Under the pieces are notes generated by a model that did no database searches, was not told the origin of the DNA, and saw nothing but the letters and a program-made list of their open reading frames with translations. Source: Halobacillus litoralis (GTDB lineage: Bacteria; Bacillota; Bacilli; Bacillales; Halobacillaceae). Taken from it: a stretch of 32,000 nucleotides of DNA. The DNA lies in contig NZ_WMEW01000003.1 of the NCBI RefSeq assembly GCF_009856355.1, positions 73,693 through 105,692 on the forward strand, written 5' to 3'. A program made the translations under genes and the position numbers. Shown here one piece after another: positions 1,342-21,201 of this stretch; position 1 is the stretch's first letter, and every line of letters starts with the position of its first letter.

Positions 1342-2727
1342 TTACTTTTCTTTCTTCTCCAACCAGGTTACACACTCCACGTGGCTCGTCTGCGGGAACA
1401 TATCCACCGGCTGGACTTCCTTCGTCTCATAGCTGCCATCTTCCAGCACCTTAAGATCTCTCGCAAGCGTGGATGGATTACAGGACACATAAACGATACG
1501 CTCCGGTTCCATATCAAGCATCGCCTTCAACAGCTCTTCGTCACAGCCTTTACGTGGCGGATCGACAACGATCACATCTGGACGAAGCCCTTGGTTGCGC
1601 CACCATGGCATCAACTTCTCTGCTTCACCGACGAAGAAGTCGGCATTGTCCATCTTGTTCAGACGCGCATTCTTTTTCGCATCAGTGACGGCTTCCGGTA
1701 CGATTTCAACGCCATACACTTTTTTCGCTTTCTGAGCTAAGAAAAGAGAGATGGTTCCGATGCCGCAGTAAGCGTCAATGACGGTTTCGCCGCCTCGTAG
1801 ATCCGCATATTCCAACGCTTTATCATACAACGTTTTCGTCTGAGTCGGGTTGACCTGATAGAACGATTTTGGCGAGATCATGAATTTGATGTCACCGATC
1901 GTGTCGTAAATGTACTCGTCGCCCCAGAGGACGTTCGTTTCTTTTCCTAAAATGACATTGGTCCGCGCGCTGTTCACGTTATGAACGATGGACTTCACAT
2001 TTGGAAAGGCATCACGGATTTCATTGATCATTTCATCTTTATGAGGCAGCTTTTTCGTTTTCGTTACGATAACGATCATAATGTCGTTCGTATTCTGCCC
2101 TGTGCGTACCATGATGTGACGCAACACACCTCGGTGGGTCTGTTCGTCATAGGCATCCAGGCCGTGCTTGGATGCGATACGGCGGACGGTTTCCACCATG
2201 CGGTCGTTCACTTCGTCCTGAATCAGACACGTATCCATATCAATGATGTTGTGGCTGCGCTTTTGATAGAAGCCGGTCATCAATTCACCGTCTTCCTTCT
2301 GTCCGACCGGGATCTGTACTTTATTGCGGTAGCGCCACGGATCTTCCATCCCCATCGTCGGGTGGACAGGCACGTGTTCCAGATGCCCGATTTTCTTCAT
2401 GTTGTCTTTGACCTGCTTCTGCTTCATATCGAGCTGCATCTGGTAGCTCATATGCTGAAGCTGACAGCCTCCGCACTGATAGAATACATCACACGGCGGC
2501 TCCACACGGTGTTCACTTTCCTCGCTCACCTTAAGGAGTTTACCGAATCCGAAGTTCTTTTTCACTTTCACGACCTTCACATCAGCCGTCTCGCCGGGAA
2601 GGCCATACGGTACGAAAAGCGGATAACCATCAACTTTCCCTACCCCATTGCCTTCATGCGTCAAATCCTCAAACATCACTTGTATCGTCTCATTCTTCTG
2701 TACAGGCGGCTTCACCTTCGCCATCAT
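1342..2727 (-). CDS. rlmCD: 23S rRNA (uracil-C5)-methyltransferase RlmCD (RumA family)
   Basis: 461 aa. It has an N-terminal TRAM-like domain, Fe-S cysteine cluster [17 protein letters not shown]-binding DAYCGIGT and catalytic VSCNP. SD AAGGA is 7 nt before the ATG. It sits downstream of dagK, as in B. subtilis (yefA). Confidence 0.93.
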
Positions 2728-2870
2728 TCATCCGTCCTTTATCTATATACTCTAACCGTAGTTTATCATATCTTTAAGTGCGGAGTCGCCCCGACAGCTG
2801 CGACAAGCATAAGAACAGCTTGTGGAGGCCTGCCGACTTCTACCTCAAACAATCCCCTCCCGAGCACTCA

Positions 2871-2912
2871 CAAACAAAAGAAAAGAACGCCACTGTCCCA
2901 ACAGCAGCGCTC
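2871..2912 (-). terminator. Probable terminator after dagK
   Basis: On the minus strand, directly after the TAA at 2919..2917, stem GAGCGCTGCTGT/GACAGTGGCGTTC (with G-U pairs) is followed by TTTTCTTTTGTTTG. Confidence 0.5.
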
Positions 2913-2916
2913 CCCC

Positions 2917-3825
2917 TTATTCTTCTTCCTTGAACTTATCTTCTGGTACAAAAAACTCCAGATGCCTGTATAAATTGACAAATTCCCCGGGCAATAATCC
3001 ACCGAATTCCCCGTCAATATTCAGCTGCATCTTTTCATCCGTCTTCACTTTCACACGGCTGGCCGTGGTGTGGATGAACTTCGGATGGTTCAGGTGATTT
3101 CCCTGAATCGCAAGTGTTGCCAGACGGGCAAACTCGGCGACGTTCATTTTTTCGATGATCATCAGATCGAACAGGCCGTCATCCATACGTGCGGACGGAG
3201 CCAGTTTCTCAAGTCCGCCGACGGAATTCGTGTTACTGACGAGAAACAGCATGATCTCTCCTTCATACCATTTGCCGTCATACTCGATTTCTACACGGGT
3301 CGGACGGATGGATGGCAGCATTTCAATGCCTTTCAAGTAATAGGCAAGCTGACCGATCATCGTCTTCAGTTTACTTGGTACTTCGTAGGAAACTTCGGTG
3401 ATTTTCCCCCCACCGGATATGTTCATGAAGTACTGGTCATTTACGCGTCCGATATCGAGAGGATGCGTATAATCCTCGAGGATGATATCGACGGCTTTAT
3501 GGATGTTTCTTGGGATGTGCAAGGCACGGGCAAAATCGTTGGTAGTCCCGACTGGAATGACGCCGAGTTTCGGTTTATGATCCTGTTCGGCAAGTCCGTT
3601 GATCACTTCGTTAATGGTTCCGTCGCCTCCTGCGGCTACAACGACGTCGAACTCCTGCTCGACGGCATAGCGGGCCGCCTTGACGGCATCACCGGCACAC
3701 GTTGTGGCATGGGCGGAGGTTTCATAACCGGACTGTTCGAATCTCTGTAAAATGTCCGGGAGAACCTTGCGAATGAGTTCTCGTCCAGAGGTCGGGTTAT
3801 ATATAATTCGGGCACGTTTCATCAT
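2917..3825 (-). CDS. dagK: Diacylglycerol kinase DagK (YerQ family lipid kinase)
   Basis: The track ORF extends to a GTG at 3933. SD AAAGGGGG followed by ATG at 3825 gives a 302-aa product starting MMKRARIIYNPTSGRE, the usual family N-terminus. The GGDGT motif is present (VVAAGGDGTINEV). Confidence 0.9.
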   Translation of the reverse strand: MMKRARIIYNPTSGRELIRKVLPDILQRFEQSGYETSAHATTCAGDAVKAARYAVEQEFDVVVAAGGDGTINEVINGLAEQDHKPKLGVIPVGTTNDFARALHIPRNIHKAVDIILEDYTHPLDIGRVNDQYFMNISGGGKITEVSYEVPSKLKTMIGQLAYYLKGIEMLPSIRPTRVEIEYDGKWYEGEIMLFLVSNTNSVGGLEKLAPSARMDDGLFDLMIIEKMNVAEFARLATLAIQGNHLNHPKFIHTTASRVKVKTDEKMQLNIDGEFGGLLPGEFVNLYRHLEFFVPEDKFKEEE

Positions 3826-3859
3826 ATGACCCCCTTTATCCAAGCTTGTTCCATCATAC

Positions 3860-3887
3860 ATCATATCTTTTTTTCCTGTTTTTGCAA
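3860..3887 (-). promoter_or_regulatory. Candidate sigmaA promoter for dagK
   Basis: Minus strand: -35 TTGCAA (3887..3882), 16-nt spacer, -10 TATGAT (3865..3860), ~35 nt upstream of the dagK ATG. Pattern match only. Confidence 0.35.
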
Positions 3888-3928
3888 ACTTTATATAGTA
3901 TATGACCGTTCGTCCTAAACCATACGAA

Positions 3929-3952
3929 AGCACGCACCCGGGAGTGCGTGCT
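3929..3952 (-). terminator. GC-rich hairpin between gatB and dagK (terminator or attenuator)
   Basis: Perfect 9-bp stem AGCACGCAC/GTGCGTGCT with a 6-nt loop, ~30 nt after the gatB stop. The downstream tract on the minus strand is only moderately U-rich (TTCGTATGGTTT). Confidence 0.45.
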
Positions 3953-3984
3953 TTGTCCCTCTATGATTGAGTCCAGGCTTCAGT

Positions 3985-5415
3985 TCAGCGCTTATCCATT
4001 TCTGCCAGAATGATTTTGTTTACCATCGGCGGGTTGGCCTGGCCTTTGGTTTCCTTCATGACCTGGCCGACGAGGAATCCGAGGGCGCGGTCTTTACCAT
4101 TTTTGTAGTCTTCGATGGACTGCGGATTGTTGTCCATGATTTTCACGATGATTTCCGTCAGCTGGCCTTCATCGGAAATTTGAACAAGTCCTTTATCCTT
4201 AACGATTTTCTCTGGATCGCCGCCGTTTTCCACAAGTTCTGTGAAGACTTTCTTGGCGATTTTAGAAGAAATCGTACCGTCTTCGATCAGCTGAATCATT
4301 TTAGCAAGAGATTCAGGTGTCAAAGCCAGGTCGGACAATTCTTTATAGTGCTTGTTCATGTAGGCGGATACTTCACCCATCATCCAGTTGGATGCCTGTT
4401 TCACATCAGCACCCTGGCCAATCGCTTCTTCGAAGAAATCGGACAGTTCCTTGCTGTTTGTGAGAACCATCGCGTCATAGGCCGGCAGCTCAAGCTCCTC
4501 GATGTAACGCTTCTTACGGGCATCCGGAAGTTCAGGAATTTCCGCACGGATGCGCTCTTTCCACGCTTCATCAATGTAAAGCGGGACAAGATCCGGCTCT
4601 GGGAAGTAACGATAGTCATCAGAACCTTCCTTCACACGCATCAGGATCGTTTCTTTCGTCTGCTCGTCATAACGACGGGTCTCCTGAAGGATTTCCCCGC
4701 CTTTCAGCAGCTCTGCCTGCTGGCGCTTCTCTTCGAATTCCAACCCTTTTTGAACGAAGGAGAAAGAGTTCAGGTTTTTCAGCTCGGTCTTCGTACCGAA
4801 TTCTTCCTGACCGATCGGACGAATGGAAAGGTTGGCGTCGCAACGCAGGGAACCTTCTTCCATCTTACAGTCAGAAACGCCTGTGTACTGGATGATGTTT
4901 TTCAATGCTTCCAGGTAGGCGTAGGCTTCTTTCGGAGAGCTGATATCCGGCTCGGATACGATCTCAACAAGCGGTGTACCTTGACGGTTGTAATCGACAA
5001 GGGAATAGCCGTCGTCGCTGTGGGTCAGCTTACCGGCATCCTCTTCCATATGAAGACGGGTGATACCGATGCGTTTTTTCTTTCCATCGACTTCGATGTC
5101 GATATAGCCGTTCTCTCCGATCGGCTTATCAAACTGGGAGATCTGATAAGCTTTCGGGTTGTCCGGATAGAAGTAGTTCTTACGGTCGAATTTCGTATCT
5201 TCAGCAATGTCACAGTTCAGGGCCATGGCCGCTTTCATAGCGAAATTCACCGCTTCTTCGTTCAGCACGGGAAGAACGCCCGGGTACCCGAGGTCGATCG
5301 GGTTGACGTTCGTATTCGGATCATCCCCGAACATGTTCGGAGACGGGCTGAAGATTTTAGAATCGGTTTTCAGTTCGACGTGGACTTCAAGTCCGATAAT
5401 CGTTTCAAAGTTCAT
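3985..5415 (-). CDS. gatB: Asp/Glu-tRNA(Asn/Gln) amidotransferase subunit B
   Basis: 476 aa with the canonical GatB N-terminus [17 protein letters not shown] and a C-terminal YqeY-like tail. The ATGA start/stop overlap with gatA is typical of gatCAB. Confidence 0.97.
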
Positions 5416-11104: not shown

Positions 11105-11271
11105 ACGGAATATCCCGTTCTATTCCCCTCTAAATCCCGGGCCGGTTAAACATTCTCAAATTCCCTGAGCATCGTACTTCCTGCTTCCGTTCCCTCTTTG
11201 ATCTTTCTAAATTCCTTCCGTTATACAGCATAAAAAACCTGTGTTAACCAGTTAGAGTGGTCCATTTGCAG

Positions 11272-11406
11272 GGTCACTTTCCGCTTATCGGTGGATGAAT
11301 GCCGCGGGCACGGCCTCAGCTAACTTGGTCAGGAAGATCGCCTGCCCAAGTGGATCTTCGGCCCGTGCTGTTCCCGCAGGCATCACCACCTAACGCTCCT
11401 CGTGCC
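11272..11406 (+). repeat. Copy 1 of a ~135-nt imperfect-palindrome intergenic repeat (candidate structured RNA / ERIC-REP-like element)
   Basis: By hand alignment it differs at ~12 positions from 20945-21079 and at somewhat more positions from the reverse complement of 13777-13911. It folds as one long hairpin. It generates the spurious MPRARPQLTW... ORF in the track. Confidence 0.85.
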
Positions 11407-11545
11407 GACGTTAGCATATATCGAAGAGGGATTGTACCCTGCTCAGGTTCGCAGATTCCAAAGAACGGCATGGGCTGCGCTATTGACGCTTGCAAAAGAA
11501 AAAGGGAAAGAAGAGGCGCTGATGACGGCTGCCTGCCGGAATATG

Positions 11546-11599
11546 AAAAAGACTGCCCGCCATCCAGCAAGGGTGAGCGGGGTGAAGGGGAGTCTTTTT
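11546..11599 (+). terminator. Long hairpin with flanking A/T runs (terminator-like) downstream of repeat copy 1
   Basis: AAAAAGACT(GCCCGC...GCGGGG...)AGTCTTTTT is followed by CGATTTT. The same 12-mer AAAAAGACTGCC opens the terminator downstream of copy 3. Confidence 0.4.
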
Positions 11600-11619
11600 C
11601 GATTTTAAAGAACTAACAA

Positions 11620-11733
11620 GGAGCGGTGCCCCTTCCACTCCTGCGGAAGAACGAGTGGGCCGAGATCACCGAGCGTGGGTTTTGCGAGGAAGCTCGGGAG
11701 CTCGTCCGCGGAAAGGGAAGGGGCTTACGCTCC
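11620..11733 (+). ncRNA. Candidate structured RNA domain (unassigned)
   Basis: A long-range helix GGAGCGgtGCCCCTTCC / GGAAGGGGCttaCGCTCC encloses a second helix CTGCGGA-agaa-CGAG / CTCG-TCCGCGG and a CCGAG/CTCGG helix. No credible ORF is present. Strand assignment is uncertain. Confidence 0.3.
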
Positions 11734-11747
11734 TGGCGGTAAGAAAG

Positions 11748-11796
11748 AAAAAAGCTTGTAAAGAAACAGGGGTTTCTCTACAAGCTTTTTCTTTGT
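11748..11796. terminator. Bidirectional rho-independent terminator (ends GH32 transcript; could also end a plus-strand transcript)
   Basis: AAAAAGCTTGTA-aa-GAAAC-aggg-GTTTC-tc-TACAAGCTTTTT has an A-run on one side and a T-run on the other. Confidence 0.7.
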
Positions 11797-11873: not shown

Positions 11874-13448
11874 TTACCACGCTGAAGGTCGGTCGTAAAT
11901 TTGGAGCGATTTGATGTTCACATCCCCTTCTTTGCTGTAGATTTCAAGTCCACTGCTTTCAGGGAATGGGAAAATCCTCGTCGTTAAGACCTGCTGTCCA
12001 TCATTCGCAAACACCTCCACAGAGGACCGGTCTACGAAGATGTGCAGTTTAACGGTGCCATCCTCTAATCGGGAAGGCGCCCGGTAGACACCAGCAAACG
12101 AATCGTGGAAATCGGTTTTTCCTGAGTTCAGACGATCGGTGAATACGACGTCGTTTTTCGTATCATATCCGACTATGGTTTCTTCCTGCATATCCGGGGA
12201 ATATCGAATGCGGAATCCGAATTCCCCAGAGGATCCAGGTTCCATTTCCGCTGTAATCTCATAGGTTTCTTCTTCAAAACCATCAATCGTCTCTGAACCC
12301 TCCAGCTCGATACCAGCGGCTTCATATAAAAGCTCTCCACGATGATCTTTCAGTTCATCGGCGGGCTGCTGGATCAGCTGCACTTCTCCGTTGTTGTCTT
12401 TTTGAAGAGTGACCTCCCTCGGAAGCGACATCGCTCCCCGCCACGGGTCGGTTGGAAGGCTGGAGGCATACGTCCAGTTACTCATCCAAGCCATCCATAC
12501 CACACGATCATCCATGCCGTTAAAGGCCTGGGCTGCATAAAAGTCCGTCCCATAATCCACCCAGTTGATGTCATTGGACTTCTCCTGTCTTGTAAATACA
12601 GCACCGTCAAAATCCCCGAGAAAATACTGGCCGCCTGAACCGCCGGCGATACTGCCCGGATTCATATCTACCTGCAGCACCCAGCGGGTATCTTCCTCAT
12701 CTCCATCTACTGGAAGTTCAAAGAGTTCAGGCGTTTCCCAGACCCCTCCCTGGGCTCCTGTATCGCCGAACTCACTTAAGTATTCCCAATCCACCAGATT
12801 CTCCGATCCATAGAACATTACCTTTTTTCCTGCGGCCAGCAGCATGATGTATTTTCCTGACTGCTCATGCCAGATAACCTTGGGATCACGGAAGTCCTCG
12901 ATGCCGGGATTCGGTACGACCGGGTTTCCTTCGTGCTTCTTCCACGTCCTTCCGCTGTCCGTACTATAGGCGATCCGTTGATCCTGAACATTACCGGCAC
13001 TCGTATAAAAGGCGATCAGACCCCCTTCTTCACCTGGGAAGAGTCCACTTTTATTCTCTTTGTCGGCCATGATACTCCCTGAGAAGATCATGCCATGCTC
13101 ATCAGGCGTAAGCGCCACCTCCTGTTCCTCCCAGTGAACGAGATCCTCACTGACTGCATGTCCCCAGCTCATATTTCCAAACTGATCCCCGTCCGGATTG
13201 TATTGATAGAACAAATGGTATTCGCCTTCGTAATACACCATTCCGTTCGGATCGTTCATCCAGTTTTCCGCCGGCGTATAATGGTATTGGGGACGGAGCG
13301 ACTGATCATAAGAGATCTCCTCCCGTTCAGCCGCCTCCTCCTTTTCACTGATCTGCTCGGCCGGCGACACCGTCAGCATATAAATGACCAGGGACAGAAT
13401 GAGGACGACCGCACCTGTCAAAGCTGTAATTCGTTGGCGTGTAGACAT
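11874..13448 (-). CDS. Glycoside hydrolase family 32 beta-fructosidase (levanase/inulinase-like), N-terminally membrane-anchored or secreted
   Basis: Preferred start is ATG 13448 (SD GAGAGG 10 nt upstream; the track starts at TTG 13457), giving 524 aa. GH32 motifs are WMNDPNGMVYYEGEYHLFYQYNP, FRDPKV and the acid/base region VWETPELF. The N-terminal hydrophobic segment is ITALTGAVVLILSLVIYML. The C-terminal beta-sandwich region is present. Confidence 0.9.
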   Translation of the reverse strand: MSTRQRITALTGAVVLILSLVIYMLTVSPAEQISEKEEAAEREEISYDQSLRPQYHYTPAENWMNDPNGMVYYEGEYHLFYQYNPDGDQFGNMSWGHAVSEDLVHWEEQEVALTPDEHGMIFSGSIMADKENKSGLFPGEEGGLIAFYTSAGNVQDQRIAYSTDSGRTWKKHEGNPVVPNPGIEDFRDPKVIWHEQSGKYIMLLAAGKKVMFYGSENLVDWEYLSEFGDTGAQGGVWETPELFELPVDGDEEDTRWVLQVDMNPGSIAGGSGGQYFLGDFDGAVFTRQEKSNDINWVDYGTDFYAAQAFNGMDDRVVWMAWMSNWTYASSLPTDPWRGAMSLPREVTLQKDNNGEVQLIQQPADELKDHRGELLYEAAGIELEGSETIDGFEEETYEITAEMEPGSSGEFGFRIRYSPDMQEETIVGYDTKNDVVFTDRLNSGKTDFHDSFAGVYRAPSRLEDGTVKLHIFVDRSSVEVFANDGQQVLTTRIFPFPESSGLEIYSKEGDVNIKSLQIYDRPSAW

Positions 13449-13776
13449 ATACTTCAAACCTCTCTCTTAAAATCTCCGAGCTTATCTTATAGGGAGAGAA
13501 GCTTTCTTTCAACTAGTATCCGGCAGCAGTTCTTTAGACCCTGCCCCCGCATCACAGCAAAGATGAAATCCTTTTCCCGGGACATGGAAACGGGTTCAAC
13601 CCTCAAGGAAAAATGACTAAAGAACCAGAAAAACCGACCAAGGTCATTAAATAACCATACCTCCATTTACAGGGTACGGTTTCAGTTTGTTGAAAACCTG
13701 GTATTTTTCCAGAATCGCAGACCATTCTATTTCCGTGCACGAACGTTTTCAGGATCTTACATCTCCATGCAGCAAG

Positions 13777-13911
13777 GGCACGAGGAGCGTTCGGTGGTGA
13801 CACCTGAGGGAACAGCACGTACCGAAGATCCACTTGATCAGATGGTTTTTCTGACCAAGTTAGCTGAGATCGCGCCCGCGGCAAGCATCCACCGATAAGC
13901 GGAGCGTCGCC
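13777..13911 (-). repeat. Copy 2 (inverted orientation) of the ~135-nt imperfect-palindrome repeat
   Basis: The reverse complement aligns end to end with copies 1 and 3 and differs from copy 3 at ~21 positions by hand, many of them paired changes. It lies between the camS terminator and the GH32 gene, on their strand. Confidence 0.85.
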
Positions 13912-13933
13912 GTCAACCCTTCATAAGTGAAGA

Positions 13934-13964
13934 AAGCCGTACCCTGAAAATCAGGGTACGGCTT
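13934..13964. terminator. Perfect 13-14-bp hairpin immediately after camS (probable terminator)
   Basis: AAGCCGTACCCTGA-aaa-TCAGGGTACGGCTT lies 4 nt after the camS stop. The flank is T-rich on the plus side (CCTTTTATTTAT) and moderately so on the minus side (TCTTCACTTAT). Confidence 0.65.
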
Positions 13965-20852: not shown

Positions 20853-20944
20853 CGGCCCGTCCCCCTCACCCTAGTCTATGCGCGACCACCGTTTTTAGAA
20901 GACGAAAAAAAGATGCCTTAACTTTCTTCTGATGTCCTATGACT

Positions 20945-21079
20945 GGTCACGTTCCGCTTATCGGTGGATGCTTGCCGCGGGCACGGCCTCAGCTAACTTG
21001 GTCAAGAAGATCGCTTGACCAAGTGGATCTTCAGCTCGTGCTGTTCCCGCAGGCGTCACCACCGAACGCTCCACGTGAC
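20945..21079 (+). repeat. Copy 3 of the ~135-nt imperfect-palindrome repeat
   Basis: It aligns full-length with copy 1. This copy has the best outer helix (GTCACGT/ACGTGAC) and a perfect apical helix (TTGGTCAAG/CTTGACCAA). It lies in the intergenic region between the YitT-like gene start and the yerC end. Confidence 0.85.
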
Positions 21080-21170
21080 AGCCACATAATGAGCAAAAAG
21101 AAAGGATCATTTTCTATGAAGCAAAAATCCGTTCCTGAATGTTGAAAAACACTAGTTTTTTCTACCCGCT

Positions 21171-21199
21171 AAAAAAGACTGCCGTAACGGCAGTCTTTT
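21171..21199. terminator. Bidirectional rho-independent terminator (yerC; possibly also a plus-strand transcript from repeat copy 3)
   Basis: AAAAAA-GACTGCCG-taa-CGGCAGTC-TTTT lies 2 nt after the yerC stop codon. Confidence 0.8.
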
Positions 21200-21201
21200 C
21201 T

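Follow-up and report, generated by a model that had tools for sequence, protein, structure and literature searches.

Hairpin copies in the Halobacillus litoralis window

The window analyzed here is a 32,000-nt stretch of the Halobacillus litoralis genome (contig NZ_WMEW01000003.1, positions 73,693 to 105,692; window coordinates below count from its first base), in which an imperfect palindrome of about 135 nt recurs between genes. This hairpin is most probably a structured module located tens of bases inside the terminal inverted repeats of insertion sequences (ISs) of the IS1182 family, with the window copies being relics of such elements. Three copies score high against the covariance model of the hairpin: copy 1 (11272-11406, plus strand; 115 bits), a left-end module of class I with an ortholog in locus L017 and a homolog in L050 (loci from other genomes are denoted by L numbers); copy 2 (13777-13911, minus strand; 114 bits), which is the module of a unit of approximately 251 bp (13683-13933) resembling a MITE (miniature inverted-repeat transposable element); and copy 3 (20945-21079, plus strand; 128.5 bits). 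These three had been reported, with the same positions and orientations, in a first-pass annotation made from the sequence alone, and its hand-counted differences of about 12 and 21 are exact: copies 1 and 3 differ at 12 positions, copies 2 and 3 at 21, and copies 1 and 2 at 22. In a repeat search, copies 1 and 3 are 92% identical, and each is 86% identical to the inverted copy 2. A degenerate pattern matches copies 1 to 3, nowhere else in the window and not once in 100 shuffled sequences.

The count of three had, however, missed a fourth, divergent copy (copy 4; 11613-11732, minus strand; 33.1 bits, E = 4.9e-9), a right-end module of class II that lies 206 nt from copy 1 on the opposite strand. 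Copy 4 retains the outer shell CGCTTTCCGCGG...CCGCAGGAGT of the other copies and differs in the interior; it is nearly identical to positions 3767-3886 of L050 and related to positions 5803-5920 of L003. All four copies lie between called genes, as the annotation had stated for the first three.

The copies fold well on both strands, with folding z-scores from -1.0 to -6.2. Among copies 1 to 3, 21 of the 27 variable positions fall in paired positions, and three pairs (42-91, 61-71 and 62-70 in element numbering) change from G-C to A-T by double substitution, whereas the two internal-loop strands, TCAGCTAAC and GTGGATCTTC, show no difference. Thus, the long multi-helix hairpin, the compensatory changes in its helices and the invariant loop that had been proposed from hand folding are all borne out. 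Also missed in the first-pass annotation were conserved flanks that consist of inverted repeats, a transposase remnant and duplicated terminators.

A hairpin family of Bacillales with strong covariation

When 185,579 species genomes were searched for the pattern CTCAGC-N6-36-TCTTC-N8-CTGNTCCCNCAGG, at least 110 loci were recovered; two matches (L006 and L026) were judged to be due to chance and left out. The 110 fetched loci contain more than 150 hairpin copies. Among the matches listed, nearly all hosts are Bacillales, including Halobacillus, Lederbergia, Sediminibacillus, Virgibacillus, Gracilibacillus, Aquibacillus, Thalassobacillus, Sporosarcina, Planococcus, Staphylococcus, Mammaliicoccus and other genera, and many genomes carry at least 10 copies. 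The family shares the core CGCTTTCC-GCGGG-CACGGCC-TCAGC-[variable apical hairpin]-GGrTCTTC-GGCTCGyG-CTGTT-CCCGCAGG-AGTC, around which an outer helix is wholly different in sequence between subfamilies while keeping its complementarity. The covariation score is 0.305 for a structure-agnostic MAFFT alignment of 61 diverse members, compared with 0.117 for shuffled alignments (0 of 500 reach the observed value) and at most 0.118 for slid partners, and 0.390 for 126 members aligned to the covariance model, compared with 0.127 for shuffled alignments and at most 0.110 for slid partners. Compensatory pairing, first noticed in three copies, is therefore a strong property of the whole family. In the first alignment, TCAGC and TCTTC are invariant because the pattern used for the search requires them, and class II members, which were found by covariance model matches, keep the outer shell and have Watson-Crick pairs in place of the loops.

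The arrangement of the hairpins is distinctive as well. Covariance model matches form convergent pairs, plus strand followed by minus strand, with gaps of 36-300 nt in at least 25 pairs or loci, and the divergent order, minus followed by plus, was never seen among these matches. Convergent intergenic regions are strongly preferred over divergent ones (36 vs 6). Breaks in draft assemblies seem to fall at members of this family, which would make copy numbers from drafts underestimates; for instance, the Halobacillus kuroshimensis contig of L017 (NZ_AUDY01000004.1) starts about 275 nt from the ortholog of copy 1, within a defective IS. A literature search with core sequence strings retrieved no relevant paper.

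Position of the hairpin in IS1182-family insertion sequences

Clustering of the proteins encoded within 2.5 kb of the elements yielded one recurrent family, transposases with the Pfam domains DDE_Tnp_1_6, DUF772 and DDE_Tnp_1 that are annotated as IS1182-family transposases in plasmid records. The layout is exemplified by an 1843-bp element of Sporosarcina aquimarina (L076), which consists of an inverted repeat, CAGACTGTTGACAAA (2297-2311), a plus-strand module (2390-2508), a minus-strand transposase gene (2519-3910), a second, minus-strand module (3935-4055) and an inverted repeat, CAGACTGTAGACAAA (4125-4139), identical to the IS1182 inverted-repeat consensus. In annotated relatives, the inverted repeats are the same but the modules are absent, and the length is 1513-1575 bp. 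The same layout is found in L014, L102, L038, L044, L062 and L116 and in the annotated ISSep1 (L122); in ISSep1, IS1272, L038 and L063, the left end alone carries a module. The inverted-repeat motif (up to 3 mismatches) occurs in the forward orientation 5' of a module 18 times, at distances of 37-226 nt and in 17 of the 18 cases within 135 nt, and the same scan found no forward motif downstream of a module. These repeats lie outside the modules, and we accordingly rejected the idea that the modules themselves are true terminal repeats of the IS.

The module occurs in two transposase clades that are only 23-28% identical to each other, with its core blocks nearly invariant between them. Within one IS, the modules at the two ends have lineage-specific variants in common. 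Conservation of the hairpin greatly exceeds that of the accompanying transposases. Small units are found as well. Lederbergia carries ten copies of a unit of about 190 bp with terminal inverted repeats and AT-rich target duplications of 8-9 bp, and the terminal repeat of a MITE unit of about 310 bp, present in Bacillus sp. Marseille-Q3570 and in Pseudalkalibacillus, is GAGGCTGGGACAAA, which closely resembles the left repeat of ISSep1, GAGCCTGGGACATAA. An origin of the Lederbergia terminal repeats from ISL3 or IS6 elements is superseded by the IS1182 evidence, and the idea of a single-strand origin (sso) or an oriT was given up, as the Lederbergia unit hardly occurs among 72,556 plasmids.

IS1272/TnSha1 inserts into DNA hairpins, and the same has been reported for some other IS1182 members (PMC4923244). 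An annotated IS1182-family element on a plasmid of Bacillus sp. S3 (L115) lies between two terminator-like 19-bp palindromes, AGAGCACTTCAAGTGCTCT (697-715 and 2282-2300), which exemplify the long palindromic direct repeats of the IS1182 family. The first-pass annotation had been unable to match the hairpin to any IS terminus or RNA family. This view cannot be upheld: the sequence is a subterminal module of IS1182-family elements, its staphylococcal form is already present in Rfam (RF02577), and the window copies belong to the ends of IS or MITE units. The annotation itself had named an IS or MITE end, or a known Rfam family, as the finding that would refute it, and a reading of the hairpin as novel is refuted on this ground. 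The hairpin is thus an ordinary transposon relic rather than a free-standing RNA gene.

Several rearranged modules were encountered among the fetched loci. In Staphylococcus coagulans, L084 (5705-6180) contains three tandem 189-bp units, each with a short module and an IS1182-like inverted-repeat hairpin, and a 202-bp contig of the same genome (L072) is this unit in collapsed form. In Virgibacillus senegalensis (L074, 2650-4700), a 1469-bp segment occurs as two tandem copies; it comprises the 3' portion of a gene for an LtaS-like sulfatase along with a module and a fragment of an IS1182-like transposase. The arrangement is either a real duplication or an assembly artifact at the repeat. In Aquibacillus koreensis, a palindrome of about 52 bp, AGGAATCACGAAAAATCC...GATTCCT, is found at one common site in helix P2 (CCGCGG|GCGG) of four different modules, in L055 (about 250-300 and 630-680) and L080 (about 3190-3240 and 3535-3590), with an apparent duplication of GCGG; the palindrome may be a tiny mobile element in its own right, with the hairpin as its target.

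Insertion sequence relics in the window

Copies 1 and 4 belong to one defective IS (11221-11787). Its left boundary is a degenerate terminal inverted repeat, TTATACAGCATAAAAAAC (11221-11238, plus strand), which aligns with CAGTCTGTAGAAAAAG, CAGGCTGTAGAAAAA and GGCTGTAGAAAAAG, the left boundaries of the H. kuroshimensis units L050, L066 and L017, respectively. Between the two modules lies the decayed 3' end of an IS1182-family transposase gene (11421-11557, plus strand), with a stop codon and a frameshift: in tblastn searches with the L038 transposase, amino acids 395-423 align at 11421-11504 (48% identity, E = 4e-4) and amino acids 422-442 at 11495-11557. The corresponding spacer of L050 encodes 49 amino acids that are 53% identical to the C-terminal region of an IS1182-family transposase (E = 9e-14). 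Because the spacer encodes the transposase C terminus, which is decayed in the window, copies 1 and 4 are, judging from the sequence, the modules of the left and right ends, respectively, of an IS with an internal deletion. A 68-codon open reading frame (11402-11608) overlaps the remnant; its best BLASTP match has an E value of 0.018, and no Pfam domain was found in it. A coding reading of this frame was rejected, since the frame is not kept between the window and L050 and the region is the transposase remnant.

The spacer also contains a bidirectional terminator-like hairpin (11546-11600), detected by folding and by the promoter and terminator scan, and the unit ends in a terminal hairpin (11752-11787), recovered by the inverted-repeat and terminator scans, the outer arm of which is an IS1182-type repeat. 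This right inverted repeat (11773-11787; reverse complement, AAGCTTGTAGAGAAA) is clear; both ends are clear in L050, whereas the left repeat of the window is degenerate. Homology with L050 and L101 stops at ...CTCTACAAGCT, beyond which the flanks differ. The unit recurs in H. kuroshimensis L050, with shorter variants in L066 and L101, in unrelated flanks, and the H. kuroshimensis units have sharp boundaries at CAGTCTGTAGAAAAAG and ...CTCTACAAGCTG. From left to right, this first relic (approximately 11221-11787) would comprise the degenerate left repeat, copy 1, the last 50 or so decayed transposase codons, a terminator, copy 4 and the right repeat hairpin.

The terminal hairpin at 11752-11787 now doubles as the terminator of a gene for a glycoside hydrolase of family GH32 (11874-13457; levanase/sucrase type, with a signal peptide), which is bracketed by the IS relics at 11221-11787 and 13683-13933. 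In related Halobacillus (L111-L114), camS is directly followed by the aldehyde dehydrogenase gene; these loci have no GH32 gene there, and the hairpin model has no match between camS and the aldehyde dehydrogenase gene in them. The GH32 gene looks like an IS-associated gene gain.

Copies 2 and 3 are located at transcription terminators. The copy 2 unit carries at one end an IS1182-like terminal inverted repeat, CAGTTTGTTGAAAAC (13683-13697, plus strand). On either side of the unit lies a copy of the camS terminator hairpin, an intact one at 13934-13964, which represents the duplicated target and was identified by the repeat search, the terminator scan and alignment, and a decayed one at 13652-13682, recognized as a repeat pair with the former and by local alignment. 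The local alignment score of the two is 26, which none of 2000 shuffles reached. Similarly, the copy 3 unit is preceded by the decayed first arm of the yerC terminator, GAAAAAAAGATGCCTTAAC (20904-20922), which matches 21170-21188 at 16 of 17 bases with one single-base gap (shuffle p = 0.002), and is followed by the yerC terminator hairpin itself (21172-21200; terminator scan and alignment), its target. Adjoining this terminator is the terminal hairpin of the unit (21135-21171), with inner arm CTGAATGTTGAAAAA and outer arm TTTTTCTACCCGCTA, the reverse complement of the latter, TAGCGGGTAGAAAAA, being an IS1182-like inverted repeat. Sequence comparison thus places copies 2 and 3 as insertions at the camS and yerC terminators, hairpin targets of the kind known for this IS family. 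In an empty-site comparison, the intergenic DNA of the closest available relatives, Halobacillus loci with a 95% identical YerC, had diverged too far for alignment. In the related loci L111-L114 (10304-12170), a gene for a PALP-domain protein of about 367 amino acids and a convergent module pair lie between yerC and a YitT-family gene; in the window (20853-21201), copy 3 is alone there, and the junction in gene content coincides with the repeat.

The second relic (13683-13933) would accordingly represent a MITE-like insertion of about 250 bp at the camS terminator, and the third (approximately 20936-21171) a similar insertion at the yerC terminator. Such units would be mobilized in trans by IS1182-family transposases that insert into DNA hairpins such as terminators, a route that we infer for the window. 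The window copies are probably inert, the 5' end of the transposase gene having been lost.

ISSep1, tsr24 and a possible antisense RNA

No Rfam family matches the window at the gathering threshold; below the threshold, however, the minus strand of copy 3 matches tsr24 (RF02577) with 40.2 bits (E = 3e-6; gathering score 50), and no match was reported for copies 1, 2 and 4 at E values up to 10. The short staphylococcal form of the module, which occurs on 80 plasmids, scores 54-107 bits against tsr24. On the Staphylococcus epidermidis plasmid NZ_CP035289 (L122), this form lies between the left inverted repeat GAGCCTGGGACATAA and a coding sequence annotated as "IS1182-like element ISSep1 family transposase". 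The whole length of tsr24 matches the left end of ISSep1 (106.6 bits), antisense to the transposase gene, and its 5' end overlaps the ribosome-binding site and ATG by about 35-40 nt. On the Staphylococcus aureus plasmid NZ_CP025497 (L121), the module (2499-2595) lies 100 nt after the plasmid-borne fabI gene (sh-fabI triclosan resistance, TnSha1/IS1272 context). The next 1.8 kb or so contain no coding sequence listed in the PLSDB table, and the IS1272 transposase gene is probably unlisted or a pseudogene.

Consensus scans of ISSep1 located an outward promoter of the extended -10 type (TTGGTA-18-TGnTATAAT; TGTTATAAT) within the opening codons of the transposase gene, a promoter for that gene located downstream of the module, and a terminator hairpin between the inverted repeat and the module. 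A tsr24 transcript has been detected in S. aureus by RNA-seq and reverse transcription-PCR (Carroll et al. 2016, PMC4752604). The tsr24 family can be re-read, from these sequence relationships, as an antisense transcript of the left end of IS1272/ISSep1-type elements. Because the ISSep1 layout matches that of RNA-IN and RNA-OUT in IS10, the module is probably, by analogy, the body of an antisense RNA resembling RNA-OUT. In an intact IS, one module stands upstream of the transposase gene, with an inverted copy after the stop codon in some lineages, and the module would most likely form the structured body of an outward antisense RNA. In ISSep1, this RNA would start in the first transposase codons, run across the ribosome-binding site and start codon and end at the terminator hairpin beside the left repeat; as with IS10 RNA-OUT, it would be expected to reduce transposase translation.

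Strand preference of the hairpin

The first-pass annotation had assigned the hairpin to one strand of a single-stranded nucleic acid, based on the distribution of G-T pairs. On that strand, G-T pairs indeed outnumber A-C pairs in copies 1 to 3, but the assignment does not extend to the family. In the 61 diverse sequences, outside a few fixed positions, the two are equally common (35 G-T vs 42 A-C), and within subfamilies of at least 85% identity, one-sided changes comprise 16 G-T and 24 A-C cases, along with 21 compensatory double changes. Several features point to the opposite strand. The two commonest conserved mismatches of helix P3, present in 24 and 14 of the 61 sequences, are A-C on the assigned strand and hence G-U on the opposite one; the conserved internal-loop mismatches are all pyrimidine-pyrimidine on the assigned strand and purine-purine, including tandem G-A, on the opposite one; and the sole transcript evidence, that for tsr24, is for the opposite strand. 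A kink-turn can be drawn on that strand (GAGCC-GAA-GA / GCU-GA-GGC), although the covarying pair of columns 50-86 favors a symmetric loop with tandem G-A and no bulge. Class II members have no kink-turn motif, and in alignment A2 the pattern used for the search imposes the invariance of the loops.

Function and origin of the module

The module could be a deeply conserved functional part of IS1182-family elements, acting either as an antisense RNA in the manner of RNA-OUT, with a protein-binding loop of the tandem G-A or kink-turn-like type, or as a DNA hairpin for a hairpin-recognizing transposase, and kept or exchanged across lineages whose transposases are less than 30% identical; we regard this proposal as plausible, if not quite probable. 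Several observations weigh against the interpretation of the window copies as IS1182 relics or against an antisense RNA function. The inverted repeats of the copy 2 and copy 3 units are weak, with 4-5 mismatches in 15 positions and one clear repeat per unit; eight copies, from Halobacillus and the window, share homology over the bare hairpin only; and an autonomous IS with a module of the window type was not found. A duplicated arm of the terminal hairpin of the IS itself borders the module in L116, an arrangement that resembles a secondary insertion of a module-bearing unit into the IS. Among the IS1182-family copies fetched from plasmids, five of six are devoid of the module, which is therefore an accessory part of an IS1182 subgroup and not essential. 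The evidence for an antisense RNA comes from one IS, ISSep1, and from an Rfam family defined by RNA-seq, and a comparable outward promoter was not found in the Sporosarcina IS. Finally, the wobble asymmetry within subfamilies is not significant and the orientation of the modules relative to host genes in tandem contexts is unbiased (24 vs 22), both of which suit a role at the DNA level at least equally well.

Such a role, in which a subterminal cruciform or hairpin would be bound by the IS1182-type transposase or a host factor during synapsis or target capture and any transcript would be incidental, is rather unlikely in our assessment. The lack of strand asymmetry among one-sided substitutions, the frequency of compensatory doubles, the neutral orientation toward host transcription and the symmetric, inverted placement of modules at both ends of some IS lineages all accord with it, as does the known recognition of DNA hairpins by this IS family. 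A module confined to the left end in ISSep1, IS1272, L038 and L063 and the apparently intact relatives that have none speak against such a role, and the conserved purine-purine mismatches, including tandem G-A, together with the A-U/G-U toggles favor one folded strand. The place of the module within the IS could also be secondary, if the hairpin were an autonomous small palindromic MITE that targets hairpins and lands both in IS1182 ends and in terminators, a parasite rather than an ancestral part of the IS. The duplicated inner arm of the terminal hairpin around the L116 module, the close IS relatives lacking the module, the homology of bare hairpins that stops exactly at the hairpin foot, and the nested insertion of the 52-bp mini-palindrome in helix P2 of the Aquibacillus modules are all in keeping with this view. 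We nevertheless consider this origin improbable, given that the module has the same position and orientation in the two diverged transposase clades, that left and right modules of one IS vary together, and that no target duplication or terminal repeats of its own are visible at the boundaries of bare hairpins; moreover, the transposase remnant in the window spacer implies that a complete IS was the ancestor of copies 1 and 4 at least.

Explanations that dispense with an IS1182 connection fare worse. The very strong covariation, the conserved internal loops that can be drawn as a kink-turn or tandem G-A on one strand, the sub-threshold match to an Rfam small RNA, and the position of copies 1 and 3, read on the minus strand, upstream of the pyrroline-5-carboxylate (P5C) dehydrogenase/putP genes and the YitT gene could be taken as signs of a structured noncoding RNA or cis-regulatory leader of the host, of the riboswitch or kink-turn type, with paralogous copies and no relation to mobile DNA. 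The hairpins, however, show no orientation bias to their neighbors and prefer convergent intergenic regions, the downstream genes are unrelated, near-identical copies come with terminal repeats and target duplications, and the elements are physically linked to transposases and IS inverted repeats; in addition, the loop invariance is partly forced by the search pattern, class II has Watson-Crick pairs instead, and the kink-turn register conflicts with the covarying columns 50-86. The riboswitch or leader reading was rejected on the grounds of orientation and IS linkage, the latter largely refuting it, and a host RNA of any kind is very improbable. Still less credible is mobilization as single-stranded DNA by an HUH enzyme, that is, a REP-associated tyrosine transposase (RAYT) or a TnpA of the IS200/IS605 type, as in REP/REPIN or PATE elements. 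A long imperfect palindrome, inverted doublets with short linkers that recall BIMEs and REPINs, and bare copies without target duplication fit such a scheme. The first-pass annotation had proposed a search for enzymes of this type, and the recurrent neighbor in the 110 loci listed, the only transposase linked recurrently to the hairpin, proved to be the IS1182-family DDE enzyme, with no HUH gene among the recurrent neighbors; the terminal inverted repeats and the 8-9 bp duplications in Lederbergia are likewise at odds with HUH transposition, and the left and right ends of an IS account for the inverted doublets.

Within the window, the repeats are decayed transposon ends of little local importance, but they explain differences in gene content from related Halobacillus. 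They are of an already known kind, defective IS or MITE of the IS1182 family, of which the Halobacillus member is new. Two results go slightly beyond an ordinary repeat, namely the structured module with its conservation and the reinterpretation of tsr24 as an antisense transcript from an IS. The transposition mechanism of IS1182 is listed as unknown, and the module offers a direct handle on how transposition is regulated or executed, which is of some practical interest because IS1272/TnSha1 spreads triclosan resistance (sh-fabI). The covariance model can be used by annotators to mask the family. If the module is indeed conserved for a function, several "small RNAs" and intergenic repeats of Bacillales would be relics of it.

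Comparison with known systems

The closest counterparts of the window elements are ISSep1 and IS1272, in which the short form of the module is located between the left inverted repeat and the start of the transposase gene. The inverted repeats are of the same types (CAGACTGTAGACAAA and GAGCCTGGGACATAA), and IS1272 inserts at hairpins and terminators, as the units of copies 2 and 3 have done. The staphylococcal module differs by the absence of the additional apical hairpin of about 35 nt present in Halobacillus. Compared with IS1182-family elements in general, many members of which have no module, the window copies are defective, with some 50 decayed codons, one degenerate repeat and two single-module units. 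The core helices and conserved blocks of tsr24 (RF02577) align with the module; however, the window copies score below the gathering threshold and are homologous to this family without being formal members, and tsr24 has been described as an intergenic small RNA rather than as part of an IS.

With IS10 RNA-OUT and IS200 art200, ISSep1 shares an outward promoter, an overlap with the ribosome-binding site and start codon, and a downstream stable stem. There is no sequence relation to RNA-OUT, and the predicted ISSep1 RNA is about 250 nt long with a multi-helix hairpin of 100-135 nt, compared with about 70 nt for RNA-OUT; furthermore, some of the module-bearing IS lineages add an inverted second copy in the 3' region. 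At the level of the genome, the hairpins resemble the ERIC, REP/BIME, Correia, RUP and bcr1 repeats, which likewise lie between genes, are imperfect palindromes of about 100-150 bp present in numerous copies per genome, and show compensatory changes, a preference for positions near the 3' ends of genes and inverted doublets. The comparison with ERIC made in the first-pass annotation was apt, in that the window elements are interspersed imperfect palindromes that behave like mobile elements, although it is an analogy only, the host being Halobacillus rather than an enterobacterium. The resemblance is thus one of organization: the taxa and sequences are different, the conserved part is the interior of the element rather than its termini, and the parent IS family can be named here.

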